Source: Schmidtea nova (taxonomy: Eukaryota). From it: DNA of 64,000 nt. The translations under genes and the position numbers were made by a program. This document shows positions 9,996 to 64,000 of the stretch, in pieces (the first letter of the stretch is position 1; each line of letters opens with the position of its first letter). The notes below the pieces were generated by a model. It was given only the letters and a program-made list of their open reading frames with translations. It was not told the origin of the DNA and did not search any database. Where the stretch lies: the NCBI GenBank assembly GCA_044892505.1, contig CM097882.1:574182001-574246000 (forward strand), read 5' to 3'.

Positions 9996-11379
<1,384 letters not shown>

Positions 11380-34693: not shown

Positions 34694-35224
34694 TATCTCA
34701 AAAATCATATTGCATCCCTATTTGCAAAAAATTACATCCATTTCATTCAATAACATTTCCCATACTAATACACAAGCAACATATATTTAAAATACAATAT
34801 ACACACATACACAGTATCATTTATTAGCATTCAATAGTTATGCTGGTGTGTTGGTTAGATTGACAACTGAGATCATTAGGATTTTATCTGTTAGGGTGAT
34901 CTCGCCAACATAAAAACATTTCCCCCGCTGACACCCATGATGTATCCCTAACTACTCATCATGTTGGTGCTGTGTCAACGTTGTGAAATGACAAGGCAGG
35001 TGAGCAACCTTTCGGCTACTATTCCCTTGTTTATTCACGGGTCCACCACTACCGATAGAAGGTGTTTGTGGCTTTCTTTCGGTCCCACTTATGCTCTTTA
35101 CTTTGCTCTAGGGTAAGTTAATTTCAGCGCATCTGCAGTTTAAATGAATCCGGGTTTTATCTACCTTCAATTTTCAGACATTCCACAAACAAACAAGACA
35201 AGTCAAATCATTCATTTTATACAT

Positions 35225-35788
35225 TTATTTATAGTTTAATAATACCGAGGGTCGGATTACATTTAGTAGTTCTTGCTCGGATAGACCACTGAGCAAGTCT
35301 ACCTCTATCCCTACGCGATCCGCATATGCGCGTCTCTCCCTACGCTTTTTCGCTCCCAAGCGATTCCGTCTCTTTGTTCGTTTCGAGCCTTCCAGAATTA
35401 TTGGGGACGTTGGGGTAGTTGTGATTGGGATGGTTTCTATTTCCGTTTGGGTACTTGTTGTCATCGATATGGTGTCCACCCACCGATTAAAGGTGCTAGC
35501 CCTGATCACTGGGCGTAATTGCTCGGTGATAAACTCCTGGGTTGATGCCCTCAAGTAATTCGACAGCTCCATCTTTAGTGCTGCTACCTCCCTAGCTTGC
35601 TCGTCGATTGTTCGTTCCGCCCTGTATCTGGCTTGCAGGATGGTTTTAACCCTCTCTGGGTTGAACCACGTGGCTTTAATTCGCTGGTGCTCGTCGTTTA
35701 GCTGCCGCAAGCGGTTTTCTAGGACTCGCGATCGTGCTTTATGCTCTTTTGCCTCTTGTTTGTAGTTCCTAGTTGGATGTTCACTCAT
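35225..35788 (-). CDS. LTR ORF-B (187 aa from ATG MSEHP): coiled coil plus Arg/Lys-rich C-terminal motif
   Basis: Intact in both LTR copies; YAG acceptor 2 nt before the ATG; AATAAA overlaps the stop. The ORF track's start at 35860 is a TTG. Confidence 0.7.
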   Translation of the reverse strand: MSEHPTRNYKQEAKEHKARSRVLENRLRQLNDEHQRIKATWFNPERVKTILQARYRAERTIDEQAREVAALKMELSNYLRASTQEFITEQLRPVIRASTFNRWVDTISMTTSTQTEIETIPITTTPTSPIILEGSKRTKRRNRLGAKKRRERRAYADRVGIEVDLLSGLSEQELLNVIRPSVLLNYK

Positions 35789-35979
35789 CTCTGTAAAATG
35801 TATCATTAATCGGGTTATGTATGGTTTGTCTGTTCTCTCAGTCACTATCTTTATTATCAAACAGGTGTTTCACTCTCAGATCGCCTCATACATTCAAAGA
35901 CATAACAAAACCCAAAAATTAATACATTTATTTTTAATACACATCAAATATTCCTTCGATGGATCGGTTTCCTTGCGAT

Positions 35980-36615
35980 TTAAATGAAGGGTCGTAATTC
36001 CTGATCGGCCGTGTTCTCGTTACGACGGATTCCGCTTTCATAGTATAACTCCGGGGCGGGGCTCCAACTTAACTTGTCCCGAAAGATGAATACCTCCCAG
36101 AGGCGTAGATCCTTGGGCTCGGGATGTTGATCTAGTGATACGCTTCCTGGCGCGTTTGAGTAGGCGAAGACTTCCCCAGTGTCGCCACACCGAGGCCTGT
36201 CTAGCAGTATGTATCCGAGTTGATGTAGCTCTTTTCCGGACGTCATTCCGGTACTTAGTAACCAGCGGGGTTGCTTTAACTCATCGAGGAATTGATAAAA
36301 CCATCGGGTATTTTCCGGCTTGATACGACCCGAGGAGGGTACCCAATCGGTATCTCCTTCCCACCGCAACTGTAGTCCAAACGCGCAAGCTGGGGTGCTA
36401 GCTGCTGAGCTCATATGGGCCCTCATCCATCGTCGTAGGTGGCGACGTGACACTTCGACAACTTTTCGGGGTGCTTCGTTCTCTCCTCTGATATTTGGGT
36501 TCGTATTTGGTCTGAGGACGGAGCGGGTGCGCCGTTTCTTACGGAGGATGGTATTCTCTATCTTTATAGGGTACGCGACCATCGGCTTCTCTTGATAACT
36601 CTCCAGTTTCACCAT
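35980..36615 (-). CDS. LTR ORF-A, 211 aa, unknown function, basic N-terminal motif RKKRRTRS
   Basis: Intact in both LTRs and conserved in the sister LTR. TATAAATA at 36673-36680, acceptor TTCTTTAG 7 nt before the ATG, AATAAA at 35927-35932. Confidence 0.8.
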   Translation of the reverse strand: MVKLESYQEKPMVAYPIKIENTILRKKRRTRSVLRPNTNPNIRGENEAPRKVVEVSRRHLRRWMRAHMSSAASTPACAFGLQLRWEGDTDWVPSSGRIKPENTRWFYQFLDELKQPRWLLSTGMTSGKELHQLGYILLDRPRCGDTGEVFAYSNAPGSVSLDQHPEPKDLRLWEVFIFRDKLSWSPAPELYYESGIRRNENTADQELRPFI

Positions 36616-37738
36616 GGTATTTCTAAAGAAGATGGTTGTTTTTAATCTACGGATTCTACGGCAGAACGGACCTATTTATATTAGTCAACCCACCCGTCTT
36701 AATTATGAAATTTTGTAGGTCCGAGGGGTACCTTCTGTGGTTTTGCCGGATCATTGTTGGTGGCTGGACGTGGGTCGTGTTAGATGATAGCTTGAACTAA
36801 TGTACTCCGCTTTTTATTTCGACGATTCAGCTACGCACGATTTGTTACAGTTGTTAATCATATCGCTATTATACTTAATATTCATCAATCAGGTTCAATC
36901 ACTCAACTACAACCGGTTTTATTTATTGGTAATACTATTTATCACATTCAATCTCATCAGTCGTTTTCGATTACTTCCTCATTTAACTAGTAATGATCAT
37001 GCCATGTCGGGTAATCCCCGTAAGTTCCTGGGGTCCTTACTCCCTGGGGTTCATCATTTTATCGGTTCTCAATGCCTGTAGTTTATTTATCATCTCTCCT
37101 GGCGACTAAACACAGCTGACAGAGGTTATCGATTATCCTTAACCCTTGATACTAGGTTCACTATGCTCGAACTCGTACGCGCTAATGTTGACATATACCT
37201 ACCCTCGTCGTCACCTAATTCATCTGCACTAATATTATTCACTGCACGTATATCCCTCGTCTAGACTTCGCCACGATATATATCCTTCCCATAAAACGGG
37301 CTTCACTTTGCGCTCGTTTACGACTACTAGTTTATACTCGATACCCTATCATTGTGATGCCAAACGTTTATATTAGATCATCTCTACCTTGATTTCGTTC
37401 ACGATCATTAGGTCTTACTCGATACCCTATGTGCATTCAACCCCTTCCGCTTTCCAAATATTTAATACACCTATGGTCCCGCCGCATCAGCACCTCACAA
37501 CCGAAAGGTTGTGTTGCGCTGAGAGGCCCCAAGAATCCGTCAGGCTGTTAGGCCTCCGGAAAACCTTATGGATTTTAATATGATTAACAATTATAATTAT
37601 GAGGGTTTAAAGCAACAATCGAACACACAACAATTACCTTTTATTTTTTCTCCAAGTTGGTTTTACAATGTTCTCAGTGCTCAACTGCAAGTCACACTTG
37701 GTAAAAAATGGCATTGTCAAATACTGATTTGACTTCAG

Positions 37739-37746
37739 TATTTATA
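37739..37746 (-). promoter_or_regulatory. Candidate LTR TATA box (TATAAATA); copy in the 5' LTR at 63893-63900
   Basis: Identical in the sister LTR (~30339-30346). A CCAAT in reverse orientation lies ~25 nt upstream, and a candidate donor AAAG|GTAATT follows at 37637 (63791). Confidence 0.55.
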
Positions 37747-38351
37747 CTCAACCGGTGTTGTTGGTTAGCCAATCAGCATCGAGTATGTGTGTATGTTTGC
37801 TTCATTTTTCATGTTGTCGGCTTTTTGCTGCCTAACTTAACTTGCCGATTTGTTTGGTTAATCATGCGGTAAGTTTTTCTTTGTCATCAATTTATTTTAT
37901 TTTATTTTTGTTTTTAGGTCTTTGGTGACATCCGCCCACGCGCTGTCATATTCAGATTTTATCTGCTTCGCATGAGTGAGTTTTGAAGATTTTTGTTGTT
38001 TTGATTAATATTTTATTTCTTTTAGATGTTGCCGCCTATTTTGTTACGCTTTGGTGTTGGTAATTTATTTTGTTGTTATTCTGTATTTAATTTATTTTAT
38101 TGATTGTATATTATTTTCAGATGCTGCTCGATTTGGCTGGCCCAACATCACTCGGGGTCCCCTAAAATTGCGTCCCGCAATTACATGCATATACCTATAT
38201 CAACATACATAAAAAGTTCGTGACAGAACTTACATGCAAAACCACATAAGGTGGTAGCTGTTATACCCATTTTTACACAAAGTCACACATTGTCATTGTC
38301 ATGTTTATATTGTTACACAGTTCAATGTTTCTGGCTCATAGGGGTTGATTT

Positions 38352-38876: not shown

Positions 38877-38949
38877 TTCTGATTATTCTACTGATTAATA
38901 CCTGTTACATCGATTTGTACATTTTTACACACGGATTTTTCGCCTCTTT

Positions 38950-40110
38950 TTACACATCCGTTTCCTCTGGTTCATGGTACCCTTCGTCTTGGAGCTCTAT
39001 TGGTGGTGGTGGTATAAACGGTAACCATACCACTCTACTTCTCCACATTGCAATTTCATCTTGATACGTTCGAGAGATTTGTATCTCTTCATCTAACAGA
39101 TACTCCATATAGTCCGATTGTTCGCTCAGAGTTTCGATTTGTCTTTCCATCTCTTCCACTTTTCTCTTCAGGGCTTCTGTTTCTGTTGGTTCGGTTTCTA
39201 CTTCTATGGTTTCTTTCTCTGCTTTCAGGGTTATTATCTGCTGTTTCAGTTCTTCGTTTTCTTTCGTCAAATTCGTTATATTTTCCTCATACGCTCGGTT
39301 TGATTCCGCATGTCTTTCCTTCACAGCTTTCAGTTCCATTTTCTTTTGGGTCACCACCCCTTGATAACCATTTACATCTCTTTCTAGGCTTTCTTTTTCC
39401 CTGATCAACTTTTGTCTTTCCGCTTCCTCTTTCTGTCTAATACCTCGCATTTCTCCATTTATCATCTGTATTTGCCATTGCGTTTTCTTTAGTTCCTTTG
39501 CCTGTTCTCGAATAAATCGCTGTCGTTTTCGACTCCATTCTTTGTTTGCTTGTTCTTGTCGCTTTCTCTGTTCCAATTCCTCTTTCAATTCGTCTATCTC
39601 TTGATACAATTTCCAATCTTCGCTGTATGCTGTCTTTCTGATTATCTCTTTGGCTTCTTTATACACTCGTTTCGACTCCATTTTCCAATGTCTCGCTTGA
39701 GCCTTGATTGCTAGTATTTTTACCTCCATCTTTTCCTCTTGTTTCTCCCTCTCTTCTCTTCGCGTTTTCATCATATTTTTATAATGTTCTGCTTGTTTCC
39801 TCATTAACTGATATACCTCTTCTATCTTCTGTCGACTTCGTACATTCGTTCCTTTTAGCTTCTCTATTTGTGTTGTCAGTTGTACTATCTCTTTATTTAC
39901 TTCCTCGAGTTCTAGTTGATATAATTCCATTCGTCTTTCGCATTTCAGTTTTTCGTAGAAATTATTTGTCATCACTTCGTGCAGTTCTCTGGTTTTTTGT
40001 TCCACTTCCACTTTACATCTCCTTTCGATCTCCCTTTCTATTTCTTCTCGTTCGTTCGACATCTCGTTTCTCGTTTCATCTTCGATTACGTGTTCATTTG
40101 CGTTTTCCAT
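38950..40110 (-). CDS. 386-aa long coiled-coil (SMC/myosin-tail-like) accessory protein
   Basis: E/K/Q/R-rich helical heptads along the whole length; C-terminal WLPFIPPPP. Confidence 0.75.
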   Translation of the reverse strand: MENANEHVIEDETRNEMSNEREEIEREIERRCKVEVEQKTRELHEVMTNNFYEKLKCERRMELYQLELEEVNKEIVQLTTQIEKLKGTNVRSRQKIEEVYQLMRKQAEHYKNMMKTRREEREKQEEKMEVKILAIKAQARHWKMESKRVYKEAKEIIRKTAYSEDWKLYQEIDELKEELEQRKRQEQANKEWSRKRQRFIREQAKELKKTQWQIQMINGEMRGIRQKEEAERQKLIREKESLERDVNGYQGVVTQKKMELKAVKERHAESNRAYEENITNLTKENEELKQQIITLKAEKETIEVETEPTETEALKRKVEEMERQIETLSEQSDYMEYLLDEEIQISRTYQDEIAMWRSRVVWLPFIPPPPIELQDEGYHEPEETDV

Positions 40111-40199
40111 TCTGCAATTTACAAATTTACACTTGTTACACTATGCGTTTATTGTTGTTGTCGATTTTTACAATTTATTTACAGGGTCGTTCACTCTGA

Positions 40200-41612
40200 C
40201 TACTCTAACCATCCTTTCGTTGACTTCGTGTTCATCACTGTTGTACTTGCTTTCTTTTCGATCTCCAACTCTACATATAGGTTGTCGTCGTACAACATCT
40301 CCCACATTGTTTGGTGTGGTATGAATTTTGGTTCTCCTGTTGCTATTGAACATTCTGTGGTTGGTCTTTTGTAAGCTTCGTGCTTACCATCAATTTTGAA
40401 TACTCTCGCTATTGTTTCTTTCGAGTTTTTCACTCTCATTATAGCCTTTGTTTCTAGTGGCCATTCTAATATGTCGTCGTAACCAACTTTACACAACGCA
40501 AAGAATAATGACACATGCGTTTCCTTTCCTGATCCATCTCCATTTGGATAAATTCTCATTCGAACTTTGTATCCGTTTTTCCACAGATAAAATGGTGGAC
40601 TTGTTACCGACACTTGACTTCCTGCTTTTGCTGCTGCGAACTTGTCGTTGAAGTTCTTGATTTTCCATACATATGGTGCGACCGGTAAATTCTCGATATC
40701 CTCTGTATCTCGTATCCACATTTGATGTCGCACGTTTACTTCTTTTACCAATGTCTCTATGACTTTGATTTTCTCCATCATTTTCTCTCTGGTGAGCTCG
40801 AATTGCTCTCTCGTTTCCAGTAATAACTCCGTCATTACCCTCTGAGATTCGATTTCTTTTCCCAGCTTCTGTATGGTTTGTTCCATCCCGTTCAAATTTT
40901 CTGTTAACATCTCGGCGTGTTGTAACGTTTCCGTTTCCAAATGCTCTTTCATCTCTTTGTTCGTTTTCTTTACTGCACATCCTTGTTTACTCCATACGCA
41001 CTTTCTTGGTCTTGATTCGCATTGTTCCCAATGTTCTCTCAACATCACTTCTTCTCCGGTTCCGCAATTACTCGGACAAATTCCTCTGCATTTTCCACAC
41101 ACTTTCTCTTCTGTTACGTTGAGATGTTCTGTTTCGATTACTTCTCTCGTCTCTCTCTGTTCGCAGTATTGACACTCTATTATCTCTGCTTTGCACTCAT
41201 CCTTGTGATTTTTCGACTGCTTGATGGTTATCGTCTGTTGACACTTTTCACATATCGCTTTCTTGTTTTCACATTTCTCCAGATGTTGTCTTAACTCGAT
41301 TATTGGTCCTTTCCATTCACATGGTGGGTTTATACACTCTGTTTTTATCTTCCAGATCTCCTTTTGGATTGCTTTGTCTGATTTCGTCTCGTTGATTAGT
41401 AGTTTATCGTCACACTCTGGACACTTTCTTGTCTCACTTTCACTGATTATTTGCAATATACACTTGGTGCACATCCTGCATCCACATTCCGTTTGTCTCG
41501 GTTTTAACAGTAAATTTTTACACTTTACACACGTCACATTTACTCCCCATTGTCGATTTTCTCCTCTTAGAATCTCGATGGTTTGGTAATCTGCTTCACT
41601 TTCTGCTCTCAT
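40200..41612 (-). CDS. Full-length TRAF-like protein (RING, TRAF zinc fingers, coiled coil, MATH)
   Basis: CVKC...TECGCRMCTKC...CPEC RING; CINPPCEWKG...HLEKC fingers; MATH YVWKIKNF...SPPFY...GYKVRMRIYPNGDGSGKETHVSLFF...DDILEWP. Confidence 0.92.
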   Translation of the reverse strand: MRAESEADYQTIEILRGENRQWGVNVTCVKCKNLLLKPRQTECGCRMCTKCILQIISESETRKCPECDDKLLINETKSDKAIQKEIWKIKTECINPPCEWKGPIIELRQHLEKCENKKAICEKCQQTITIKQSKNHKDECKAEIIECQYCEQRETREVIETEHLNVTEEKVCGKCRGICPSNCGTGEEVMLREHWEQCESRPRKCVWSKQGCAVKKTNKEMKEHLETETLQHAEMLTENLNGMEQTIQKLGKEIESQRVMTELLLETREQFELTREKMMEKIKVIETLVKEVNVRHQMWIRDTEDIENLPVAPYVWKIKNFNDKFAAAKAGSQVSVTSPPFYLWKNGYKVRMRIYPNGDGSGKETHVSLFFALCKVGYDDILEWPLETKAIMRVKNSKETIARVFKIDGKHEAYKRPTTECSIATGEPKFIPHQTMWEMLYDDNLYVELEIEKKASTTVMNTKSTKGWLE

Positions 41613-41702
41613 TCTACAACAATATTTACATCAATTTCCCCATATTTTTGATTTTTTCTGGTTCTTTATTTACACGTATTTACACAATTTTCCGCTTATT
41701 CA

Positions 41703-42174: not shown

Positions 42175-45100
42175 CTATACGACTATCACTGGTTTTCCTT
42201 CGTACAGTTCCTCGTCTTCGATCTGTACCCACATCTCTTCGTGTTTCGATCGTCTTTTCAGCTCTTCTCGTACTTCTTTTGGTAGTTTTATGTTATAATT
42301 CATGACCTTTACGTCTGGCCATTTTACTGCTATGGTCTTATTTCTCATGCCATATCTCCAACATACTATCATGATCGTTATCAGTGGTATACACGCTATG
42401 AATACTCCCATGCTGATTAATCCCATTACTGTTTTTCCAATGCTCATTCTTGGAGTCTCACTTTGGTTTATCATCACGCCATATTGACCTTTCCATTCTG
42501 CTTCCCATTGTTCGTATTGTTGTTGTCTCCGTCTGACTTTTTCGATCACTTTCTCTGGTTCCCATTTTTCTTGTTGATTTGGTATTGTTTCTTCCTTCTC
42601 GTTTTGTTCTCTCTTCTGACTCAATTCTCGGAATTCTAACTTTTTGATTCTCCTCTTTATCGGTGTGTAGTAGGTTTCGCACCTTTCTTGTGGATTTCCT
42701 TGTGTATCCACTTCTTCAATTGCACACACCTCGTATTCTGCGTTTGTTTTCAACTTCCTCATTTCTACCTCGATTATTTCCTTTTTGTCATTTGATGTCT
42801 TTTGACAGTTTCGTGGAGACTTTCCCATACTGTTTGGCATTAATGTCCAACAGATTTCTAGGACCTTTTTATGGATCTTCCATATTATCAACGTTGTTGA
42901 TTCCGGTTCGTTTTCTATTGTCGTTCTTTCCGTTGTTGCCTGTTGAACTCCTTGACTGTTTGTTGTCGTGGTTCTTTTTGACTTTCTTTTCCTCTGTCGA
43001 CTTCCTCCCATTTCAATCGTTCTCGTTCCGTTAATTTGCTCTGGCGTCTTGTATAGTTTACATTCCGAGCTTCTTTGTATTATTTCTCTTATTCTTCGGA
43101 TTACGCAGATTTCGTAGGTTTGTCCGACTTCGAATCCATTTAGTTGAAACGGGATTCCTCGTTCTCTCGTTCTGCATTGCGGTATTATGTTGTTGGTCGA
43201 TACTCCGATGTATTTTCTCCAACACATCCCAATTGTTCTCCGACCAATATTTTTTATCTCCACGGTTACTACTTCATTCGCAATCGTTTCTTGATCTTGT
43301 TTCTTTCTTTTTGGGAACTCAATTATCTCCTTTGCTTGGAACACTTTACACTCGCTTGTTCCTGGTCTGTTTCCGTTTGCTGCCTTTTCCATGAGACATA
43401 GTTCATATTTTTTATCTGTCTCTATTTCTGTTATTTCGATTTCTTCATTTGTCTCTGCTTTTCGACTTTCTCTTGTTTCGCTGATTCCAATTACTTCATT
43501 GTTTCGTCCCCAACATCTTCCATTCGTTGTTCGTTGATCTTGGATGTTTACTAACGTCATCACGCTGATATCTATGTCCTCCATGATTCTCTTAATGAGG
43601 ATTAATATTAATGCTACACATATCAATTCTGGTTGGAATGTTAATTTGCCCGCTGGATTTTTGGTTATTCTTTCTTTCTCTGTTCGGTTTCTGATTCCTT
43701 CTTCTGCTTCAGATTGATTCTTCCCTTTCTCTGATTCCACTTCTGTTCTTCTCGTTGTCTCTTCGCTTCTTTTCTCAATCCATTTCTGTATCTTCAGCGC
43801 TTCCGTTGCTTTGTATAATTGGCATGCAGTTACTTGAGGTGCTTTTGGTTCTCCTCTCTGCTTTATTGCGCATATTATGTATGACTTTTCTTTCTCCAAT
43901 CCTTTGATTTGGATGACGTCTCGCTTCAGATCTGACAATATACACTTCAGCGTATCGTTTTTCTTCAGGTTTTCTTTCCAGCATATTCTTTCGTATACTT
44001 CGTTTCCTCTGATTATCTCTAGCGTGACGTATTGTTTCTTGGCTTCTCCTTGTCCGATGATTGTTATCAATATCGCGATACACAACATTTCTGGTCTCAA
44101 AAGTAGACTTCCTGTCCGTTTTCCATAATTCGTACGTTCGTCTTTTGTTCCACTGTTCTCTCGTTCTTCGGCTTCTCCTTTCTTGTCGTTTCTTGTTGGC
44201 TTTGGTTCTTCTTGTCTTTCTTTTTCATTATCCTCTGTTCTTTTGTTGTCATTGTCTTCGTTGTTCTTTTCGTTGTTACTTTTGTCGTCGAAGTCTCTGT
44301 AACCACCCCCTGGTCCTTTGAAAATGTCGTCCTCGACATTAATTCCTTCAATCAATCTTTCATACGTTTGAACCGCGAGTGTGCTAGACTCGAATTCCCG
44401 TATTTCCATGTCTTTGGATGGTTCTATGTCTTTTAGTCTACTTTGCTTGATCGCTTCTTTGGCATTTGCCCATTCATTCACATATTTTCTGAACAAGTCT
44501 TTCCATCTTCCCATTCGTTCCTGTTCCCTTGGGTTGTTCGTGAATTTCAAATCTCTTCTCTTCAAGAATTCTTCTACTATCTCTGGCTTTTTGTGTCTTA
44601 ATAACGCGCTTCTGATACACCAATTCTGATTCTGTTCCATATGGTCGTTGATCTTGAACACTGGTTCCTTGGTGATCGGATTCACCCATGTTAGTAATGC
44701 TCTCGTTTTCTCTATGTCGTGTATCATTACCGTCAGACTGAAATTCTTTACGTTATTTGCCAGGTATTCGATATCATCTTGTTTCTTGATGGACTTCATG
44801 AACTTGATCATCTCGAAGTTGTTCCACTGTATTGCGATATCTATGATGGAATTATTCTTTCCATTCTTCCCTTCGATTTTTGCTCCTGCTTCGTATAATT
44901 CATTTAGCACTTTCAACTTCGTCTTCTTTCTTGCTGCGATTATCATGATTGTATCTCCATTATCATCAACCGTATTCATATCTGCTTCGCACTTGACCAT
45001 TGTTTTCGTTATTTCTAACACTTCGTTTTCTTTCTTTCGACGTAATGCCCAGTGTATCGGCAATCTCCCATCCTTCGATAATAGGAATGCTACTGGTATT

Positions 45101-48100
45101 TGATTTTTGATCGTTTCTATGTCGATCTCGTTATAATCCCCTTGTGCATATCTGTGCATTTTCTCTGTAATCGCTCCTAATATTTCCAACGAGTTTTTAT
45201 TCTCTTTGAATTCCGATAATTTTTCCTGTGCTTTTGCTACGATTGCGTCTAATCTCTCTTGATGATCAGCTTTTGCATTGAACAACACTGCCTTGCTTCT
45301 TATTCGTGTTTGCATCTGTTTCATCCGTTGGTCTTGATACACTGCTTGTCTGAAGAATTGTCCATACTTCAATGCTTCCACCAGCTCTTTATATCGCTTG
45401 CTTATTTCTTTGTGCTGCTTTTGGATGTCATAAAAATGTTCGAAGCTCATATCCGGATTCCATTGCTTATCACACCATTTCTTGATTAATCCGAATAATT
45501 CTTTCTTTCTGTCTTCCAGCTTGTATTCTCTTGGGTTCTCGCTGACCCGTAGCGTATCTCTCGCTATCAACACTGCAAGTGTTTTTGGATCGTATGTTAC
45601 TTCTAGTAGATGTTTCAGTAACGTATTTTCTCCCTTTGTGAATACTTCATTACAATCTATGACCCACGAATCTCCTTCTGGTCTTTTCCACTTTAGCAAT
45701 ATCCTCCAGGTTTTACTGTTCTTTACCCCGATTGCTTGTTTCATGATCGATCCTCTAGTTAGTTCATCGATTTCCCACGTGGCATTTTCCGTAATATACT
45801 TCAGTATTCGGTGATTCGCTCTGTCAATTGCATGATTCAAGAATGTTCGTCCTTCTTTATCTTTTGTCATCCAATTCGATCTGGTGTTTCCGAATAGCTT
45901 GATTATTTCATTGTTTCTTCCGTGAATTGTCATCATCATAAGTGGAGTGATTCCTTCCCAATTCACTTTGTCAATTTCTCCTCCACCTTCGAGTATCATC
46001 TCCATGATCTCTTTCACTTTTTCGTTTCCACCGTGCTTGATTGCATTGTGCAACGCTGTGTTACCGTCTTTATCCTGTAAATTCAATGTTTGAGGGATTT
46101 CTTCCAGTAACGTTCTTGTAATTGGATGCGCTGTTCTGTCTTTTGCATACTCCATTACATTCTTTCGAACTTCTGACAGTATATGGAAATCGTGCCACCA
46201 TCTCCATTCCGGTATGATTTCTCTGGTTTTCTTTGCCAGTTCTTTGATGTCTATTATCTCCCTTCGGTTGTCCTCTAGACTGGTTTGCGGCTTTTGTTGT
46301 ACTCGTAACATATTAATTCTCGCCGTCTGTGATCTTGTCATCACCCGTTTCTCTGGTGATAGAGTTGCTGTCTTTGGTATTTTTCTGCATCGACATGCAT
46401 TCACGTATATTGGTCTTACCAATGGATTGTTCACCAATCGTACTCGCACATTATTTTCATTTACTGTTGTTATTTCGTATGGCCCTTTGCCTGGTCGTTG
46501 GAGTTTCTTGACCGTACCGGGTATTATCTCTGGTGTCTCAATTATCACCCAATCTCCAACTTTTAACTCATGTGCTTTCACATTCTTTTTCTGGTCATGC
46601 AGATCCTTGTAACTCTCTTGATAGAACTTGATGTTTAGTTCCGCCGTTTTCCAGATCTCTTGCATTCTTTCTTTGAACTTCGTCACGTAATCGTCAACCT
46701 CCATGTACTGTGATAATGGTGGTTGGTATTCTAAATCGATTGGTAAGTTGCAATCTCTTCCGTACATCAGTTGGAATGGACTTAGCTTTGTTGCCGCATG
46801 TATTGACATTCTATATGCCATTAAGCACAAGTTGATATATTCATCCCAGTCAGTTTGATGTTTACTGACGTAATTTGACAACATGCGTATCAATGTTCCA
46901 TTGAACCTTTCTGTTTGATCGTTCGTTTGTGGATGGTATGGGGATGTTCGTAATTTCGCAATTCGGAAGTAATTCGTGACCTCGTCTAATATTTCACTCA
47001 TGAAGTTCGTTCCTTGGTCCGTTAGGATTTTCTTTGGTGTTCCGTATCTGCAGCATATCTCTTCTACCAATATTCTCGCGACTGTTTTTGCTTTTTGATC
47101 TGGTATTGCGAACGCTTCTGGGAACTTTGTTAGATAGTCCGTGACTACTAAGATATATTGATTCCCTTTTAAACTTTCCGGCAATGGCCCAACTACATCC
47201 ATTGCTATCGTCGCCATAGGTTCCGCAGGTATTGGCATAGGTTTTAGTGGTGTTTTCCACTTCGTTCCTACGTTCTTTCTTGTCGCACAGGTTAAGCAGT
47301 TCTTTATCCATTCCTTCACATCATCTTCCATGGTTGGCCAAAAATACTTTTGTCTCAATCTCCCGATTGTCTTTTTCGCTGACATATGTCCGCCTAATTT
47401 TCCGTCATGATATTGAGTCATGATTTCCTTTCGCCTATTCGCAGGTAAGCACATCAATCTCCGTTCTCCATCCTGTATCAATAACCATCCTTTTTCCATC
47501 ACGTATCTATGTTGATATTTCTGCATATGTTCACGCAACACTTGGTTCTTGCCGAATATTTCCATTTCCCTTTCTTTCAAATACTTGCTGATCAATCCCA
47601 ACTCCTCATCTTCGAGTTGATCTTTCCTTAGTTCGCTGAAATCCAAATCCTCCGCTATTAATGCACATATTTTCAGAGCATTCAGGTTCACCAATTCTGG
47701 AAATGTAAACCTTGACATGCAATCCGCATTTGCATTTGCTTTTCCTGCTTTAAACTTTATGAACGGCGAGTATTCCTGTAACTGCATCGCCCAACGCATC
47801 AATCTACTTGATGATTCTTTATGTTGGCCTAACCATACTAGTGGTTGATGATCCGTCGTGATATATATTTCATGACCCCACAATAGGTATTTGAAATGCT
47901 TGATTGCCAATATTATCGCATAGGCTTCTCTTTCTGTGACTGAGTAATTCCTTTCATGTTTCCTGAACGTTCGACTATAATATCCGATTACTCTCTCTTT
48001 GCCTCCTTCATCAAATTGGCCTAGTACTGCTCCTGCTGCGTATCCACTTGCATCTGTTGCCAACAGAAATGGCTTCTTAAAATCTGGATGGACTAGTATT

Positions 48101-51100
48101 GGTGCTGTAATCAGCTTATCTCGCAATGTTTCAAATGCTGCTTGCTGTTCTATTCCCCATATAAACGACACATCTTGTCTTACCAATTCTTGCATTGGCT
48201 TTGATATTCCTGCATAGTCCTTGATAAACTTTCGATAATATCCACACAATCCCAAAAATTCTTGTATTTGAGTCACTGTCTTTGGTGGTGGACATTCTTT
48301 GACTTTCTCGATATTCCTTGGATCTGGTTCTTTTCCTTTTGCTGATACAATGTGACCTAAAAATGTCACTTTCTCTTTTGCCCAATCGCACTTTGACGGC
48401 TTCAATTTCAGTTTCCACTGTCTTAATTTCACGAACACATTTCTGATGTCTTGTAAGTGATCTTCGAATGTTGCGGAGTAGATCAATAGATCGTCGATAT
48501 ACACCATGCATTGCTTTATGCCATGTGTTACGAAATTCATGCATCTCTGGAATGATGCTGGCGCGTTTGTTAACCCAAACGGCATTTTCTTGAATTGGTA
48601 CAGATCTCGTCCGATTGTAAATGCTGTCTTCTCTTTATCCTCATCTTTCATTTTGATCTGCCAATATCCGCTTTTTAAATCCAGTGACGTGAAATAAGCT
48701 GCTCCTTGTAACGTCAATAACATTTCATTTATGTCTGGCAGTGGGTACGTATCTCTTTTCGTAACTGCATTCAATCGTCTGTAATCGATACAGAATCTCT
48801 GAGTTCCATCCTTCTTTTTCACCATCACCACTGGGAATTGCCAGGGTGAGCAACTAGGTTCGATGACCTCTGCATCTAACATCTTTTGTACCTCTTCTTC
48901 TGCCACTGCTTTTTGAGCTTCTGCCAATTTGTATGGTCGTAATGCTATTGGCGTTTCGTCCGTCAACGGTATCGTGTGTAATGTTACATCACATGTTCCC
49001 AGATCTAAATCTGATGCTGCGAATATATCTTTATATTCCATCAACAGTTTCTGTAACTGTTCTTTTTGTCGTTCGTCTAACAACACACTGTCGATTTTCC
49101 ATGGTAATTCGTCTTTGCTTTTCTCGTTCTTGTCTGGTATTTCGATTTCGGACATGGGTGTCAATTTACCCAATCTCTCATTCTCGTATATTATCTTGTC
49201 CTCTTCGTCGAAGTTTACCAGATTAATTGGTATCTCACCTTCTTGGTTTATCGTAACCAATTCTCTTGCCATTGGTAATTCTTTCTTTGCTTCGAACTTC
49301 TTACTGGGTTCGAATATCATATCTCCTTTGATTGTCGAATCGATCTTGACATAACACATCATTTCGTGTCTCGCTGGCACTACTATTTGTTCCGCACTTG
49401 CCACTTTAACTTTCATTCTGCAGATTTTTCCGGTTCTGTCTTTTAGCTTCATTGCTCCTAGATCAATTACGATTTCCTTGAACAGGTCTGGCATCAGGTC
49501 AGTTCCAATAATACATGGTACACTCAGCGATGGTATTACAGCGATGTACGTGTTGATTTCTGCACCTCGATGCTTAATTTTTACAAACCATCTTCCGGCT
49601 ACTTCTACTGTCTCTTGACTGCACGCGATTACATGTACATTCGTTTTCTCGATTTCTCCTTGGTTTTTCTCTGGTATATAGTTGATGTCGATTGCCGAAA
49701 TATTCGCGCCTGTATCGATCATAGCTTCAATTTCTCTTCCGTTTATTTCTACGGTTGTTGTTAAAATCGGTCCCATATTTGTGGACATAACTGCTATCGT
49801 GTGCGTGTCTTCTAACGAGTCTACGCTTTTACCTCGTTTTACTTTGCATCCTTCGGGAATTATCGGGTATATACTTGTCATCGGCATCATCTGCATCATA
49901 TTCGGCTTTGCTTTGTATATCGGTTCGTTATACATTGACTGAGGTGGAGCGCTGTATCTCCAATTCTCAACTGCACTCTTTTCAGTGTATTGTGGAATCT
50001 GGTTTATATTCGCTTGTCCTCCTCGATCGTCATCATCATCATCATCATTGCTTGAGTCATCCTGCGTTCGATATCCTCTCATTCTTTCCCATAATCCTTT
50101 CCTTTCTTTCTTTAGTTGTCGCCTTGCTTGTTCATCTTGCATTATCTTTTTGAATTTCCTTCCGACATCTTCATTTGTTCCTCTCATTTTTGCAAGTATC
50201 TTCAACAACCTCTTTATTCGATGTATGTCTTTTGAGTGTCCATGTAACACCATCGTTTTCGCAAGGAATGGTAAAAACCCTACTACCATTTTCCAATTCA
50301 CTTTCTTCTCTCTCTTGTAGATATCGAAACACGCTAACATCTGCGTTATTATCACTCTGACGATTTGTATTATCAATATAACTCCCAGTATTCCAGCCAT
50401 CATTTGTCCAAATATCAGGAATCTTCCCCACATTGCCTTCATCATATTTTCTGTGGCTTTCTTGAAATGTGCCGGTGACAACAACAGTTCGTAATTCGGT
50501 CCTTCTCGATAATTCGTTCCTCCCGTTATCGTTACGATATTTGACAGTAATGCTTCTCTTCTTGCCGGAAATAGTATATTCTGCCTTGCTGCCTCCAGAT
50601 CTTTTGGACTATAGATTCCGTTGTTTGAGACATCTACGTCACTGAACTGTCTATCCTTTGACAACTGCATTAGCTCAAATTCTCTTGGTGCTAATACTTC
50701 GGTTCTTCCTGGGAACATAACCCATTTGCCATCTGGCTTCTGATAAAGCGGTCCGTACGCATTACTACAGTTGAATGGATTTGGTTCAAATCCTGGTGGA
50801 TTGATGATTCTCGTCACCGGTTGAACGTATCGTACTTTTCCTTTATAATCGATTTCTAGTTCGTTTGTACATTGTCCAGGTTTCAACTGCGTTGTTGCTG
50901 CTAGCGATGCATGTGTCTTTTCGCAAATGTATACATACATTGCCTCTCCAACCACTCTTCCGAAATGTCCTTCTCTCAGTGGTAATAATGGCATCGCGCT
51001 ATCTGGATTCGTAATCGCTACGGCCAACTTTGTCTTTAATATTTCCCGATTCAGTATACAATCGTTATTTATCAGATCATAGTACACTTTTTGCAATGAG

Positions 51101-54100
51101 GCTTGTCCTCTATGGAATAAGAAATCCATTTTATTATTCACATACAAGTGTAGCTTGATATCCATTGTGTCGATCTTGGGTTTCGCATTCGGCACTTCTT
51201 GTTTCGACACGTATATTCCTGGATAGTTTGTTTCGTATACTGTTGTACTGCACTTAAGGGTTGCTTTCCCTTTTATGAATCTCATTCCCACATCCTGATT
51301 TGTGGTTATCAACACTGTTGGTGTGGTTCTCATCTCTATCCGTTTTTCTCTATGATCCGGTTTCAATTGTCTTTTATTCTCTAAAGCCTCTTTGAGATGT
51401 TTTGCTCTAGCTTTGTCATCATCGTCTTCTTCTTGGAATGTTTTCCCTTGAATTTCGTCAAACTTTGCTCCTTGTAGCAGTTGTAATTGACATTCGTTCA
51501 CTTTCGGTTTGTATATCAATGTTGACATTCCCGTTTGACACATGCTCCTGTCAATTTTACACATGGATAACGTTTTCATTTCTCCTGTTGTCGGTTCGAA
51601 GAATGCTTCGTAGCTTTTCAGTTCGACTATGTATGTGTCCATTACCACTAAGTTGGTTGCAGGTACTCCAAATATTGGGTAGGTTTCTCCTTGACAATAT
51701 CCTTCTCCTCCCGTAATCCGTCCTGCTACATAATATGTCTGCTGTAACATCATTCCTGGCTTTCCTCTTATCTTGATTTTATCTCTTGTTGTTACTTCTC
51801 CATGTTTGAATAATGCTTCACAGTCTTCTCCTTGCAACACGATTGGTTCTCTTTCCGTTCCTGGCATGACAATTGCTGAATAATGTCCTCTCCCGCAATA
51901 GAATGCGAATCTCGTCTTTTGCACTTTGCATTCATTCACCATTGTCTTTATTAGTTCTGCCTCTTGATACACGTGGTACCATTGTTCCTTTTTAATCTCT
52001 CTCAACTCTACTGGAGTTGCATCTTTGCATTGCTCCGTACCTCTCAATGAGTACTTTTCTCCTAACTTCATTTGATCACAATCAAATACCTCAAATGTTG
52101 TTACACCTTCCGTGCTTAACAACCATACTAACATCATCATGATTATCGAGTTTAAATTCAACGTCGATCTTCCGTTTCCTTGCATCGTTTGTCTATTCTC
52201 CATTTCCCTCAATACTCCTTCGAGTTTCTTTCTCATCACGTTAGCACCTTCTTTTGTCTGGTTTTCTTTTACAAATTTTTCCCATCCTCCTTTTCTGAGG
52301 ATATATGGTTCAATTTCCTTCTCCATAATCATCGCCGTATTTTTGATATGTCTTCCCATCGGACTTGACTTCGGACTCCCTCGGCTTAGCGTTAGTAGAT
52401 TGTATATCGTATACGAGATTGCTACCAGATATTTGCTATCCGTCTCTGCTCCGTTAAGTAGCCTTTTTATTAACATCGTGGTTCCTTGCCAATCTAGATG
52501 ATTCGCTTTTGTTTTTGCCTTTATCAATTCTGGCATAATCGGTGCTATCGCATTGTGTAGCATCCTTGCCTTTGTACTGGGTTCGTTTATCCGCCACAAA
52601 TTCTTTAATTCTGGATCAATTATCGCTAACACATCCATTATCGTTTTGGTGAGCCATTCCTCTCCTTGGCAGACTTGATTCTCCTCTTTTCCTCTGGTCT
52701 CTGCGATTTTATCCAGTTTCTTCAAGCAAATCTCCCATTGCTCTTGTCTCCTTTCTTCTCTTGACTTTGGAATTGCTGTTGCTGGATCTATCTTTGGTCT
52801 TCCTCTTGGTCGTTTTTCCATTCCAGTTCCGGTTTCTACAAATCTCGTTGCTCTTCCTGTTTCTTCCGTAACATCCCTTCCTTCGTTTGCTCGTTGTTCT
52901 AACCATCTTTCCATTTCTTGAGTAAACTGTGGTTGTTCTTGCTCGTCTTCCGAATCGTTTACCATTTCTATGACTACCTCCTGTTCCACTCCTTGATCGT
53001 CGATTTCTGCTGGTGACGTTATTGGCATCTCTATTATTCTGTCGAAAATATTCGCCGTTGGTTTTTGAGTCAACTTCGTTAGTTCTTCTATCGCTTCGTC
53101 ACTGTCTGTTAGTATCTCATCGACGTCATACGCTTCTGGCGGTGTTCTCTCTCTCGTTTTGATTGGTGTTGTCCTTGTTTGTCCCGAACTTGTTCCTGGG
53201 GTCATTGTTGACTTCATCGGACTTGGTGTACTCATGCTTCCTTTCGCTTTCTTTTCCTCTTTAAACTTCAGTGGTTGACCCACTATTTGTGCCACTGTTA
53301 GCGTATTCATTAGATCCAATTGCACTGGTGTCAGCCAGATTTCCAAACTATTATCCAACGATCGTCCTTGATGTTGCAGGTGGAATGGTAGTTCGTACAT
53401 CAGTTTCTCTTTAACACTTTTCACTTTTTCTGTTAGCATCACCCAAAACTCTTCTTTTCTCTGATTCGGATACATTATCCTCAAATGTATTTTTTGTGGC
53501 GTTTCCTCCGCAAACTCTTTGTTTCTCCACTTTTTTATTACATCGTCTAGTTGCTCTGGACACCACTCGTTAACTCTCTTGTATTCTGCTATCGCTTTAG
53601 CTACTTTTCTCAAGTTCGTTATGTCTTCTCCATTTGAGATTATAAATTGTGCTAAGCCTTTTATTGCTTGTCTTTTTCCCCGAGTATTTCCTCTCAACAG
53701 CTCGATCAATTCACTCGTTTTCTGTTTCTCCAGTTCTGCCCATATTACTGCAGTTTCTGGTCCGTCTAAGTCCGTTGGTAATAACCTCCTTGTTACCATA
53801 CATATCCGTTTCGTATTCCGTTCATGTCTGTCTTCTCCTTCCGGATCTTCTTCATACACGCCTCTTTTCACTTTCCAACATTTCTCTTTGTTATCCCATT
53901 GCTTCTCTACTGGCGTCAATCGTCGTCTGTTAAGATCCAATTCTCCCAATATTGTCTCCCATTCTGGCTTCATCTGCCAGTTCCGATAGATTTCTACTAT
54001 CTGTCTCAACTTGCGCATAACGTCCTCTTGTCGTGCCTTTTTCCTTTCCTCATCTTTTGGTGTTGCTCTTGGCACATCATCCATTCTGATGACATGTATT

Positions 54101-57060: not shown

Positions 57061-57938
57061 CCCGATTCCACTGTCTTGGAATACTGTACTAATTTTCTTT
57101 GCTTCTAGTTCACCACTTGTTTCTGAATTTGACTTTTCTTCTTCACTACTCTCTGTTTCGTTATCTCTTGATTCGTTTCTTGTTCTGTTTTCCCTGACTA
57201 GTTCACTGTCTATCGTCTCTACTTCGTTTTGTACTGCTAGATCTTCTGGGGTTTCTTCTTGGTTCTCTTTATTACTCGAATTATCGCTGATCTCTACTTG
57301 TTTGTTCTTTTGTTGCTTCGGCTTGTTACCTGTTCTTGTCCTTTTTGCTGCTTTTCTTTCTGCTTCCGTTAAGATTGGTATTATACCTGATCTTGTTTCT
57401 CGTCCCTCAATTTTGTCTATTCCTCAACTGCTTATATTCTCAACTGCTTTTCTACTCCGCTTTTGCTTTGCTTCTTCTTTGATTTGTTTCTTTTGATTGC
57501 TCTGACTGCTAGATTGCTTTGAATTGCTTGATTGATTTGTTTCCTTAAAACAAATAATCACTTACACGATACGTCCCCGTTATCGTGTTTCTCGTCCCTC
57601 TCACGGGTGTAGTCATAATTCATGAAGATCCCCATTTTTCCCATTTCCCTTGATTTTAAGTCTATTTAAATTATCTATGCAGTCGTATCAATTATCTATT
57701 CTTTATCAAATGCACCAATTACTTTTCCCCAGTTTCCCAATTACTTTGTCGCTCAGCGCTCTTATTATTCCCTTTACTTTTTCTCAGGCTTCTCTGGCTC
57801 TGAGTTCAAATCTCCCCTTATCTGTCAACTACTCTATTTCTCAACTATTCGCTTTATCTCTTGTTCGCACTACGTTTACTACTTCATTTCAATTCTCCTC
57901 TCTACTCACCTTTAATTTCAACTGACATCTCTCGTTGG

Positions 57939-58404: not shown

Positions 58405-58730
58405 CCCTTCACTTACTCACTTTACTTTATTACTCCTTTGTATGCATACTTTATCATCATTAGGCCACATAATCAGCTTTACTCGCATTTATCAATACCC
58501 AGGTGCGCACCTTCAACTCTCACATTATTATCTCGGTTTCTTTCAACCCTTATTCCTCATTATTCGCTATTCATTTTCACTATTCATCATTTATCCTCAT
58601 TATCATTTATTCATCTCCATTATCGCTTATTGATCTTCACTATCCGGATAGTTTTATGCTTTATTTAGTCCTCATCTGCCTCACTTCGTCGTCTTTCTCG
58701 TGGGCTTTTACTCGATATTTTATTTCAAAC

Positions 58731-60988: not shown

Positions 60989-61378
60989 AATTTATGCTGG
61001 TGTGTTGGTTAGATTGACAACTGAGATCATTAGGATTTTATCTGTTAGGGTGATCTCGCCAACATAAAAACATTTCCCCCGCTGACACCCATGATGTATC
61101 CCTAACTACTCATCATGTTGGTGCTGTGTCAACGTTGTGAAATGACAAGGCAGGTGAGCAACCTTTCGGCTACTATTCCCTTGTTTATTCACGGGTCCAC
61201 CACTACCGATAGAAGGTGTTTGTGGCTTTCTTTCGGTCCCACTTATGCTCTTTACTTTGCTCTAGGGTAAGTTAATTTCAGCGCATCTGCAGTTTAAATG
61301 AATCCGGGTTTTATCTACCTTCAATTTTCAGACATTCCACAAACAAACAAGACAAGTCAAATCATTCATTTTATACAT

Positions 61379-61942
61379 TTATTTATAGTTTAATAATACC
61401 GAGGGTCGGATTACATTTAGTAGTTCTTGCTCGGATAGACCACTGAGCAAGTCTACCTCTATCCCTACGCGATCCGCATATGCGCGTCTCTCCCTACGCT
61501 TTTTCGCTCCCAAGCGATTCCGTCTCTTTGTTCGTTTCGAGCCTTCCAGAATTATTGGGGACGTTGGGGTAGTTGTGATTGGGATGGTTTCTATTTCCGT
61601 TTGGGTACTTGTTGTCATCGATATGGTGTCCACCCACCGATTAAAGGTGCTAGCCCTGATCACTGGGCGTAATTGCTCGGTGATAAACTCCTGGGTTGAT
61701 GCCCTCAAGTAATTCGACAGCTCCATCTTTAGTGCTGCTACCTCCCTAGCTTGCTCGTCGATTGTTCGTTCCGCCCTGTATCTGGCTTGCAGGATGGTTT
61801 TAACCCTCTCTGGGTTGAACCACGTGGCTTTAATTCGCTGGTGCTCGTCGTTTAGCTGCCGCAAGCGGTTTTCTAGGACTCGCGATCGTGCTTTATGCTC
61901 TTTTGCCTCTTGTTTGTAGTTCCTAGTTGGATGTTCACTCAT
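61379..61942 (-). CDS. LTR ORF-B copy in the 5' LTR
   Basis: Translation identical to 35225-35788. Confidence 0.7.
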   Translation of the reverse strand: MSEHPTRNYKQEAKEHKARSRVLENRLRQLNDEHQRIKATWFNPERVKTILQARYRAERTIDEQAREVAALKMELSNYLRASTQEFITEQLRPVIRASTFNRWVDTISMTTSTQTEIETIPITTTPTSPIILEGSKRTKRRNRLGAKKRRERRAYADRVGIEVDLLSGLSEQELLNVIRPSVLLNYK

Positions 61943-62133
61943 CTCTGTAAAATGTATCATTAATCGGGTTATGTATGGTTTGTCTGTTCTCTCAGTCACT
62001 ATCTTTATTATCAAACAGGTGTTTCACTCTCAGATCGCCTCATACATTCAAAGACATAACAAAACCCAAAAATTAATACATTTATTTTTAATACACATCA
62101 AATATTCCTTCGATGGATCGGTTTCCTTGCGAT

Positions 62134-62769
62134 TTAAATGAAGGGTCGTAATTCCTGATCGGCCGTGTTCTCGTTACGACGGATTCCGCTTTCATAGTAT
62201 AACTCCGGGGCGGGGCTCCAACTTAACTTGTCCCGAAAGATGAATACCTCCCAGAGGCGTAGATCCTTGGGCTCGGGATGTTGATCTAGTGATACGCTTC
62301 CTGGCGCGTTTGAGTAGGCGAAGACTTCCCCAGTGTCGCCACACCGAGGCCTGTCTAGCAGTATGTATCCGAGTTGATGTAGCTCTTTTCCGGACGTCAT
62401 TCCGGTACTTAGTAACCAGCGGGGTTGCTTTAACTCATCGAGGAATTGATAAAACCATCGGGTATTTTCCGGCTTGATACGACCCGAGGAGGGTACCCAA
62501 TCGGTATCTCCTTCCCACCGCAACTGTAGTCCAAACGCGCAAGCTGGGGTGCTAGCTGCTGAGCTCATATGGGCCCTCATCCATCGTCGTAGGTGGCGAC
62601 GTGACACTTCGACAACTTTTCGGGGTGCTTCGTTCTCTCCTCTGATATTTGGGTTCGTATTTGGTCTGAGGACGGAGCGGGTGCGCCGTTTCTTACGGAG
62701 GATGGTATTCTCTATCTTTATAGGGTACGCGACCATCGGCTTCTCTTGATAACTCTCCAGTTTCACCAT
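62134..62769 (-). CDS. LTR ORF-A copy in the 5' LTR
   Basis: Translation identical to 35980-36615. Confidence 0.8.
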   Translation of the reverse strand: MVKLESYQEKPMVAYPIKIENTILRKKRRTRSVLRPNTNPNIRGENEAPRKVVEVSRRHLRRWMRAHMSSAASTPACAFGLQLRWEGDTDWVPSSGRIKPENTRWFYQFLDELKQPRWLLSTGMTSGKELHQLGYILLDRPRCGDTGEVFAYSNAPGSVSLDQHPEPKDLRLWEVFIFRDKLSWSPAPELYYESGIRRNENTADQELRPFI

Positions 62770-64000
62770 GGTATTTCTAAAGAAGATGGTTGTTTTTAAT
62801 CTACGGATTCTACGGCAGAACGGACCTATTTATATTAGTCAACCCACCCGTCTTAATTATGAAATTTTGTAGGTCCGAGGGGTACCTTCTGTGGTTTTGC
62901 CGGATCATTGTTGGTGGCTGGACGTGGGTCGTGTTAGATGATAGCTTGAACTAATGTACTCCGCTTTTTATTTCGACGATTCAGCTACGCACGATTTGTT
63001 ACAGTTGTTAATCATATCGCTATTATACTTAATATTCATCAATCAGGTTCAATCACTCAACTACAACCGGTTTTATTTATTGGTAATACTATTTATCACA
63101 TTCAATCTCATCAGTCGTTTTCGATTACTTCCTCATTTAACTAGTAATGATCATGCCATGTCGGGTAATCCCCGTAAGTTCCTGGGGTCCTTACTCCCTG
63201 GGGTTCATCATTTTATCGGTTCTCAATGCCTGTAGTTTATTTATCATCTCTCCTGGCGACTAAACACAGCTGACAGAGGTTATCGATTATCCTTAACCCT
63301 TGATACTAGGTTCACTATGCTCGAACTCGTACGCGCTAATGTTGACATATACCTACCCTCGTCGTCACCTAATTCATCTGCACTAATATTATTCACTGCA
63401 CGTATATCCCTCGTCTAGACTTCGCCACGATATATATCCTTCCCATAAAACGGGCTTCACTTTGCGCTCGTTTACGACTACTAGTTTATACTCGATACCC
63501 TATCATTGTGATGCCAAACGTTTATATTAGATCATCTCTACCTTGATTTCGTTCACGATCATTAGGTCTTACTCGATACCCTATGTGCATTCAACCCCTT
63601 CCGCTTTCCAAATATTTAATACACCTATGGTCCCGCCGCATCAGCACCTCACAACCGAAAGGTTGTGTTGCGCTGAGAGGCCCCAAGAATCCGTCAGGCT
63701 GTTAGGCCTCCGGAAAACCTTATGGATTTTAATATGATTAACAATTATAATTATGAGGGTTTAAAGCAACAATCGAACACACAACAATTACCTTTTATTT
63801 TTTCTCCAAGTTGGTTTTACAATGTTCTCAGTGCTCAACTGCAAGTCACACTTGGTAAAAAATGGCATTGTCAAATACTGATTTGACTTCAGTATTTATA
63901 CTCAACCGGTGTTGTTGGTTAGCCAATCAGCATCGAGTATGTGTGTATGTTTGCTTCATTTTTCATGTTGTCGGCTTTTTGCTGCCTAACTTAACTTGCC

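Follow-up and report, generated by a model that had tools for sequence, protein, structure and literature searches.

What does a retroelement gain from a predicted membrane-anchored module that its polyprotein carries behind every enzyme? The question is raised by a stretch of 64,000 nucleotides from Schmidtea nova (GenBank assembly GCA_044892505.1, contig CM097882.1, positions 574,182,001 to 574,246,000; below, the window), which contains a Ty3/gypsy element of about 29.5 kb with a Burro-type layout. The element has a single open reading frame (ORF) of 5,082 codons on the minus strand (42175..57423, first ATG at 57060) that runs from gag through a class III fusogen, pol and ankyrin repeats into a surface module, which forms the final 645 codons. 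From its sequence we lean towards reading this module as a second envelope glycoprotein that serves attachment or adhesion as the partner of the fusogen. Positions are given in window coordinates, and the parts of the module and the genes of the element are all on the minus strand.

The module begins with a hydrophobic segment, H1 (44041..44112), which is predicted to be an internal signal peptide that is cleaved, its (-3,-1) site lying immediately before the first repeat. Four repeats follow, R1 (43786..44043, amino acids 4461-4546), R2 (43318..43575), R3 (43027..43284) and R4 (42655..42912), and between R1 and R2 lie linker 1 (43651..43785) and a second hydrophobic segment, H2 (43588..43650). 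Behind R4 come a charged stalk (42439..42651) with a conserved N-glycosylation sequon at N4986, a C-terminal transmembrane segment (TM; 42361..42423, amino acids 5001-5021) with basic residues on its C-terminal side, and a predicted cytosolic tail of 61 residues plus stop (42175..42360), which ends in I-V-V here and in T-V-V in most older copies. A preliminary description of the window had placed four repeats, two hydrophobic segments and a terminal TM with a short tail at these positions, and this arrangement was confirmed. All six pairs of repeats scored above shuffled sequences (z 3.9-10.2, the score being reached in 0-5 of 2000 shuffles), and profiles built from three repeats recovered the remaining one with E values of 1e-7 to 1e-9; no other stretch of the polyprotein did better than E 0.004-0.007. 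The motif described as common to the four repeats is complete in R1 and R3 but lacks the G in R2 and both the G and the E in R4, and the number of Cys is four in R1, R3 and R4 but three in R2. H1 and H2 are paralogs, as judged by a likeness that none of 5000 shuffles attained.

That the repeats are fibronectin type III (FN3)-like is well supported by several searches, each of them modest and with inputs in common. A 31-row profile of the repeats, in which three rows came from two other families of the genome (D and E, see below), matched 11 PDB sequences at E<=10 (best E 4.5e-4), all of them FN3-containing as judged by protein names; a 16-row profile without the D and E rows was weaker (fibronectin at E 0.026, four of ten matches unrelated). 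ELFN2/PPP1R29 was among the PDB profile matches (E 0.78). Among 1.84e9 representative proteins, the profile of the four repeats found two, of which the credible one is a tandem fn3 protein, P0003 (E 1.8e-4); the other, P0002, was discarded as a spurious tandem repeat. In the ESM Atlas all ten of the best families belonged to the FN3 clan, with scores of 0.84-0.86, which we take as a lead.

An AlphaFold2 (AF2) model of R3, predicted from a supplied alignment, was all-beta with six DSSP strands and a pLDDT (predicted local distance difference test) of 78.7. Foldseek ranked FN3 domains first for this model (top match an FN3 scaffold, E 0.017, prob 1.0), and VIA gave FN3 domains of sDscam, Tie2 and LAR with a best Z of 7.5 at a root-mean-square deviation of 2.7-2.8 over 75-77 aligned residues, a Z that by the tool's own guidance may reflect merely a common arrangement. 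The proposal of an FN3-like beta-sandwich in the preliminary description thus held, with modest scores. R1, R2 and R4 were assigned as FN3-like through their homology to R3, and all four repeats contain a Trp in strand B and an L-x-x-x-x-x-Y before strand F, a motif of FN3 domains. None of the repeats matched Pfam fn3 (PF00041) even at E<=1, and R4 gave one weak Pfam match to Fn3_ELFN (E 0.038). A Foldseek comparison of the R3 model with viral models returned nothing at E<=0.001, and word-index protein searches with the module gave no match among proteins of 354-1129 or 1130-3225 amino acids; the Fn3_ELFN profile had no match in the S. nova genome, which is uninformative since the positive control likewise matched nowhere. 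A single-sequence AF2 prediction of the entire 645-residue module had a pLDDT of 35 and was discarded. Because the structural matches are 6-22% identical to the repeats, no donor gene can be named. The suggestion of a cytokine-receptor decoy was weakened: the module has none of the class I cytokine-receptor hallmarks WSxWS, CxW and Box1, and cytokine receptors do not stand out among the structural matches, Ifnar1 being 22nd in the VIA ranking for the single R3 domain (Z 6.9), level with adhesion proteins.

Copies of the module are numerous. At least 68 are present (68/68 scored candidates matched, at 93-100% identity), and R3 occurs at least 150 times (150/150 scored, identity down to 50%), both numbers being lower bounds. 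Selection was estimated from single-base codon differences relative to the window copy, with sites weighted for transitions and transversions and with variants common to at least two copies. The ratio of nonsynonymous to synonymous rates (dN/dS) was 0.18 for 19 close copies, which were the best protein matches to the module, a choice that lowers dN, and 0.22 for 13 older copies, taken from 20 low-identity R3 loci after exclusion of four partial and the three most decayed loci from the rates. For two off-frame controls dN/dS was about 2. It was 0.08-0.29 for the individual repeats, 0-0.16 across H1, H2 and the TM (H1 0-0.1, H2 0-0.09) and 0.12-0.16 for the tail; the value of about 0.5 for linker 1 was not significant. 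The Cys of the repeats are conserved among copies. The module is under purifying selection, and given that it is located after every enzyme, the constraint belongs to the module itself.

Related families in the same genome were collected by a search seeded with the fusogen and with Bcl-2; a further family, C, was found through its BIR domain. A signal, an ectodomain, a TM and a tail stand after the integrase in all five fusogen-bearing families examined here, A (the family of the window element), B1, B2, D and E, the pol of the others being 39-47% identical to that of family A. In B1 and B2 (polyprotein about 3,400 amino acids, pol 47% identical to the window element) the end consists of a signal, a beta-rich ectodomain of ~320 amino acids, a TM and a tail ending in T-F-V, as seen in 6/6 sampled loci, one of them broken upstream. 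In D and E (about 3,000-3,080 amino acids, pol 39% identical) a signal is followed by one FN3-like domain, a Thr-rich or basic stalk, a TM and a tail; both hydrophobic segments are present at seven of eight loci and one broken locus retains the signal alone. Ten further polyproteins were found in public assemblies by a fusogen search among long proteins, and nine finish in a signal, an ectodomain, a TM and a tail, so that the layout occurs in 14/15 fusogen-bearing polyproteins examined in total. The ectodomain units of seven outside polyproteins are mutually homologous (E of the best unit 2e-8 to 1e-3 in leave-one-out tests) and contain the FN3-type motif L-x-x-x-T-x-Y; their best match beyond themselves is again P0003. 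Three fusogen-less Gypsy control families had no terminal hydrophobic segment, and the module was found in none of them. Of a set of 30 integrase loci, 29 of them from one family, 24 run far enough to be scored, and none of these has such a segment either. The idea that a second surface protein is linked to a class III fusogen is supported by this contrast.

The ectodomains themselves differ widely. Their identity is lower than that of the fusogens in 6/6 sister pairs (for example 58 vs 94% and 39 vs 94%), and what the families have in common may be a slot that is refilled with different domains. The ectodomain of family B had ESM Atlas features toward FN3 (0.90, at a low recognition score) and gave nothing useful against PDB and Pfam. 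With the D/E profile, LIFR and fibronectin were weak and ranked below an unrelated top match, and iteration from one unit of the outside polyprotein P0012 brought no expansion. As separate observations, eight of the ten outside polyproteins (P0004, P0005, P0006, P0008, P0009, P0010, P0011 and P0013) have an extra aspartyl-protease-like domain in the interval from integrase to signal, recognised in five by the best Pfam stretch and in three by eye, and some have further aspartyl-protease-like copies after the fusogen. An ORF after a family B polyprotein (L041:4400-5848) contains a stretch resembling a DEDDh exonuclease, and had no Pfam match at E<=1.

The module is predicted to be a type I membrane protein, for which H1 and the TM satisfy simple rules and H2 leaves the topology ambiguous. 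H1 looks like a cleavable internal signal: it has a basic flank and a 14-residue uncharged run, and its (-3,-1) site is kept in 19/19 close copies. Such a site follows all 14 first signals of the polyproteins examined, and in 13 of 14 TMs K/R are more frequent on the C-terminal than on the N-terminal side, with one tie. Release of a surface protein by signal peptidase, as claimed earlier, is thus supported as a prediction for H1. The description of H1 and H2 as duplicated signals stood for the duplication and was not supported for a second working signal. The uncharged core of H2 is 11 residues long and followed by KR, and H2 is the sole one of 15 signal-like segments without a cleavage site. 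It would not act as a second signal in the same chain, because two signals with N-terminus inside require an intervening membrane crossing and none is present. The linker between H1 and H2 is highly charged, and the Asn residues of its two sequons, N4569 and N4579, are two of only three invariant sites among 45 in 16 older copies. Sequons C-terminal to H2 are also kept, in 13/14 and 10/13 older copies. Most simply, the whole of R1-R4 would be lumenal and H2 would not cross the membrane; most likely H2 passes into the lumen or dips into the membrane.

Other ways of separating the parts were rejected. Splice acceptors (CAG from the P-E codons) that would start separate mRNAs at H1 and H2 do not fit the copies, in which the CAG is lost through synonymous change in 12/35 cases at H1 and 8/35 at H2, and no in-frame ATG is present before the H2 core; the P-E motif before H1 and H2 is a protein-level constraint. 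Ribosome skipping (2A) or furin cleavage between R1 and H2 was rejected as no motif for either is found there.

A class I PDZ-binding motif is S/T-x-V/L at a free C-terminus. The form S/T-x-V terminates eight of 14 polyproteins, with a chance of about 0.007 for each, and these endings are spread over four of eight lineages, or five when the older family A copies are included. Ten of the 14 readable older copies of family A end in S/T-x-V (nine T-V-V, one T-I-V), and 11/14 have the class I motif S/T-x-V/L. The lineage of the window element has, on these comparisons, lost the class I form. A PDZ-binding motif in the Env of human T-lymphotropic virus 1 (HTLV-1) binds DLG1 and promotes cell-cell fusion, according to PMC4810129. 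The likeness is that a membrane protein of a retroelement has a class I PDZ-type motif where its cytosolic part ends; the HTLV-1 motif, as described there, sits on the fusogen itself, whereas here it would be on a separate predicted protein.

Taken together, these data are consistent with the following course of events, which we infer in part. The single ORF would be threaded through the endoplasmic reticulum (ER) membrane, with Gag cytosolic, a signal, the fusogen lumenal, a TM, and Pol with the ankyrin repeats cytosolic, followed by H1 as signal, R1-R4 in the lumen, the TM and the cytosolic tail. On this prediction the polyprotein passes through the ER membrane four times and Pol is anchored on either side. 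Cleavage by signal peptidase behind H1 would release the FN3 protein in equimolar amount with the fusogen. The fusogen tail continues into the protease, and therefore the sole encoded free C-terminus of the polyprotein is that of the FN3 protein. Its PDZ-type tail, in the many relatives that have one, could place the protein at cell junctions, its fast-evolving ectodomain could bind a host partner at the surface of the target cell, and after incorporation into particles the fusion protein and its attachment partner would carry the element from cell to cell. Tentatively, entry would then have two components, a conserved class III fusogen and a swappable FN3-based attachment glycoprotein with a PDZ-type tail aimed at junctions. 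Herpesvirus gD or gH/gL with gB, and paramyxovirus HN/H/G with F, are such two-component systems. The likeness to them, in that a conserved fusogen is accompanied by a separate type I glycoprotein that evolves faster, is a functional analogy alone; unlike in these viruses, a single polyprotein supplies both proteins, one on either side of Pol, and no link in sequence or fold was found. Among cellular proteins the module resembles Dscam, NCAM, LAR, Tie2 and ELFN/LRFN in its predicted FN3 fold, TM and short tail, often with a PDZ-type ending, and differs from FN3 adhesion and receptor proteins in its extra Cys pairs and in having no Ig, LRR or catalytic domain.

Several observations weigh against an attachment glycoprotein of this kind. 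There are class III fusogens, rhabdovirus G and baculovirus GP64 among them, that need no partner for either attachment or fusion. The class I PDZ motif is absent from the window copy (I-V-V) and from 19/19 close copies. H2 is constrained as strongly as H1 and has a conserved KR behind it, as a stop-transfer segment would have, and the tail, which is predicted to be cytosolic, likewise has a conserved N-K-T triplet, so that conservation of sequons is no proof of topology. The support for the fold is modest, with no Foldseek match at E<=0.001, Z below 8, six DSSP strands and a model of R3 alone, and the choice of close copies favours low dN. Among the outside polyproteins P0010 has no module, and the post-integrase slot of P0013 holds a short Cys-rich ectodomain that by eye is unlike FN3, which suggests that the content of the slot can be swapped. 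Comparison with hhalign gave no link between the ectodomains of A and B (probability 0.4%) and a weak one between A/C and D/E (probability 9.8%, E 0.003), and a profile of 11 outside units recovered the window repeats no better than shuffles. The controls number three families, and the fusogen-bearing families cluster apart from them (support 100/99), so the co-occurrence may be a single origin rather than repeated co-evolution. Finally, fusogen-less family C retains R1 in at least 150 matches.

The module could instead modulate the host, as a surface protein or ligand trap whose ectodomain binds a growth factor or immune ligand or whose tail engages PDZ or TRAF scaffolds, so that the producing cell is kept alive alongside TRAF, ankyrin, BCL2-like and IAP cargo. 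We consider this improbable. A P-x-E-x-x-E stretch in the tail resembles a TRAF6 site, but it is often altered in older copies. In favour of such a role, TRAF and ankyrin are present in the element itself, and BIR and Bcl-2-like domains in related families; against it, the module is kept in families B, D and E, where no TRAF ORF was seen downstream. The rapid evolution of the ectodomain would be compatible with such a role too, and the missing cytokine-receptor hallmarks speak against it. The IAP region of Burro1 is reported to protect stem cells, in work cited by PMC13465017. Family C bears on both sides of the question. Its ORF of about 1,050 amino acids, with SUMO-like, protease and ankyrin parts and no match to a fusogen, reverse transcriptase (RT) or integrase, retains a signal and a single domain homologous to R1 (E 6.5e-7), without a TM, and the retention of these parts in the absence of a fusogen counts in favour of host modulation. 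The core of this signal is interrupted by Lys in 13/22 copies, although a copy of this kind had seeded the search, and dN/dS is 0.49 for the FN3 domain, not significantly below 1, and 0.19 for ankyrin. Family C therefore keeps a decaying stub of the module; the module decays upon loss of the fusogen and ankyrin remains constrained, which argues against host modulation. Apart from this question, high-copy family C (L055, L057, L067, L068), in which the stretches read contain no fusogen, RT or integrase, also has TRAF and BIR, and ORFs of 275 and 297 codons with TM segments are repeated at both ends, probably in long terminal repeats (LTRs).

An assembly or trafficking factor is less probable still. 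The module would then anchor the end of Pol in the membrane and its tail would sort the assembly site to a polarised membrane domain, the ectodomain being a unit for folding or export that has no outside partner. The topology, the signal and the tail motif are far better conserved than the ectodomain sequence, the number of domains varies from one to four across families and one relative has a different ectodomain. On the other hand, the purifying selection on every repeat and the conserved Cys speak against this role, and the repeated expansion of domains would suggest that reach or avidity is important. It is very unlikely that the protein serves as a block to superinfection, occupying or masking the receptor or the fusogen on the producing cell and so stopping re-entry or premature fusion: equal output with the fusogen from one ORF, coupling to the presence of the fusogen and a family-specific ectodomain would all suit this role, but selection among element lineages would follow more readily from a direct role in new insertions. 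Hardly credible is a functionless captured host fragment that is open merely through the polyprotein frame, since, although such elements capture many host domains (PMC6431247), a stop after all enzymes would cost nothing and yet dN/dS is about 0.2, a selection test that contradicts a passenger, and the layout recurs across the fusogen-bearing polyproteins.

The type of element is known. Burro/GYPSM1 elements of planarians are about 30 kb long and encode a polyprotein of about 5,000 amino acids in which env stands in frame, after gag and before pol (PMC6431247). Compared by description, the window element is like them in size, gene order, ankyrin repeats and TRAF accessory gene; neither an FN3 domain nor a second signal nor a C-terminal TM is listed in the Burro section of that paper, and the word 'fibronectin' appears nowhere in its text (PMC6431247). 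Errantiviruses of GAG-ENV-POL order with an ENV of herpes simplex virus/gB type have been reported from flatworms, nematodes and bryozoans, and the window element has the same order of genes and the same class of fusogen; the description given there has a single envelope protein, and 'fibronectin' is nowhere in the accessible text (PMC13524379). A fusogen stretch of family B is, by eye, close to the Smed_errantivirus_1 row of a supplement, and 'fibronectin', 'FN3' and 'PDZ' are absent from the seven supplement files searched (PMC13524379). The accessible parts of PMC11410931 and PMC11952523 contain nothing on the module. No description of it was found in this literature, which does not include the primary Burro papers, so that earlier annotation is possible; a general second membrane protein of the clade would be the new part.

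LTR elements with an envelope have so far been described with one envelope protein, and a second conserved membrane protein across a whole clade would alter the picture of how they spread. If the proposal is true, two-component entry would be a retroelement counterpart of the entry machines of herpesviruses and paramyxoviruses, and the attachment protein could set the tissue or stem cell that each family infects. The ectodomain is a concrete soluble reagent for finding a host receptor, and it makes the cell-to-cell movement of Burro-type elements and the determinants of their tissue preference testable. BURRO1 is described as intestinally enriched (PMC8532177).

The remainder of the element conforms to the Burro type, with long LTRs, a length of ~30 kb, env in frame between gag and protease-RT-RNase H-integrase, and ankyrin plus TRAF/MATH. 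The LTRs of 3,310 bp each lie at 34838..38147 (3' LTR, minus strand) and 60992..64000 (5' LTR, minus strand, extending ~300 bp beyond the window end). They are identical (100% over 3009 bp within the window, and likewise over an overlapping 1302 bp that extends beyond the window), which indicates a very recent insertion. Pfam domains follow the order zf-CCHC zinc knuckles, class III fusogen, protease, RT, RNase H, integrase and ankyrin. The fusogen has an internal signal predicted by hydropathy (52096..52161, amino acids about 1755-1776), a class III (gB-type) ectodomain (50419..52095, Pfam Monjiviricetes_fusion, E 1.4e-68) and a TM (50347..50403, amino acids 2341-2359); Pol (protease, RT, RNase H, integrase; approximately 46354..49761) and two blocks of ankyrin repeats (44794..46095) were assigned by Pfam. 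SUMO-like or BCL2-like domains before env, which are present in related families, gave no Pfam match at 52300-55500 of the window.

Downstream of the polyprotein lies an accessory TRAF ORF with RING, zinc fingers and MATH (40200..41630, Pfam). A 176-codon accessory ORF (38352-38882, minus strand) has an N-terminal signal-like segment, a helical stretch, a TM, a basic tail and a weak Pfam match to GP41 (E 0.004), and is a possible candidate for a third surface protein. The ATGs of the TRAF ORF, of a coiled-coil ORF (38950-40140) and of this small TM ORF, all on the minus strand, are each 1-2 nt after a YAG. Each LTR contains two ORFs of 214 and 231 codons without a real Pfam match (35225-36675 and 61379-62829, minus strand), and the element's 5' untranslated region has a 19-bp tandem repeat (58728-58956). 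Outside the element, the window holds an inverted, diverged relic (29943-32081, 75-87% identity), a tubulin coding stretch (10105-11379, plus strand) and, at 15149-16489, 19521-20846, 21976-23514 and 27022-27840 (plus strand), fragments of another Gypsy, of hAT elements and of an RT-GIY-YIG (Penelope-like) element.

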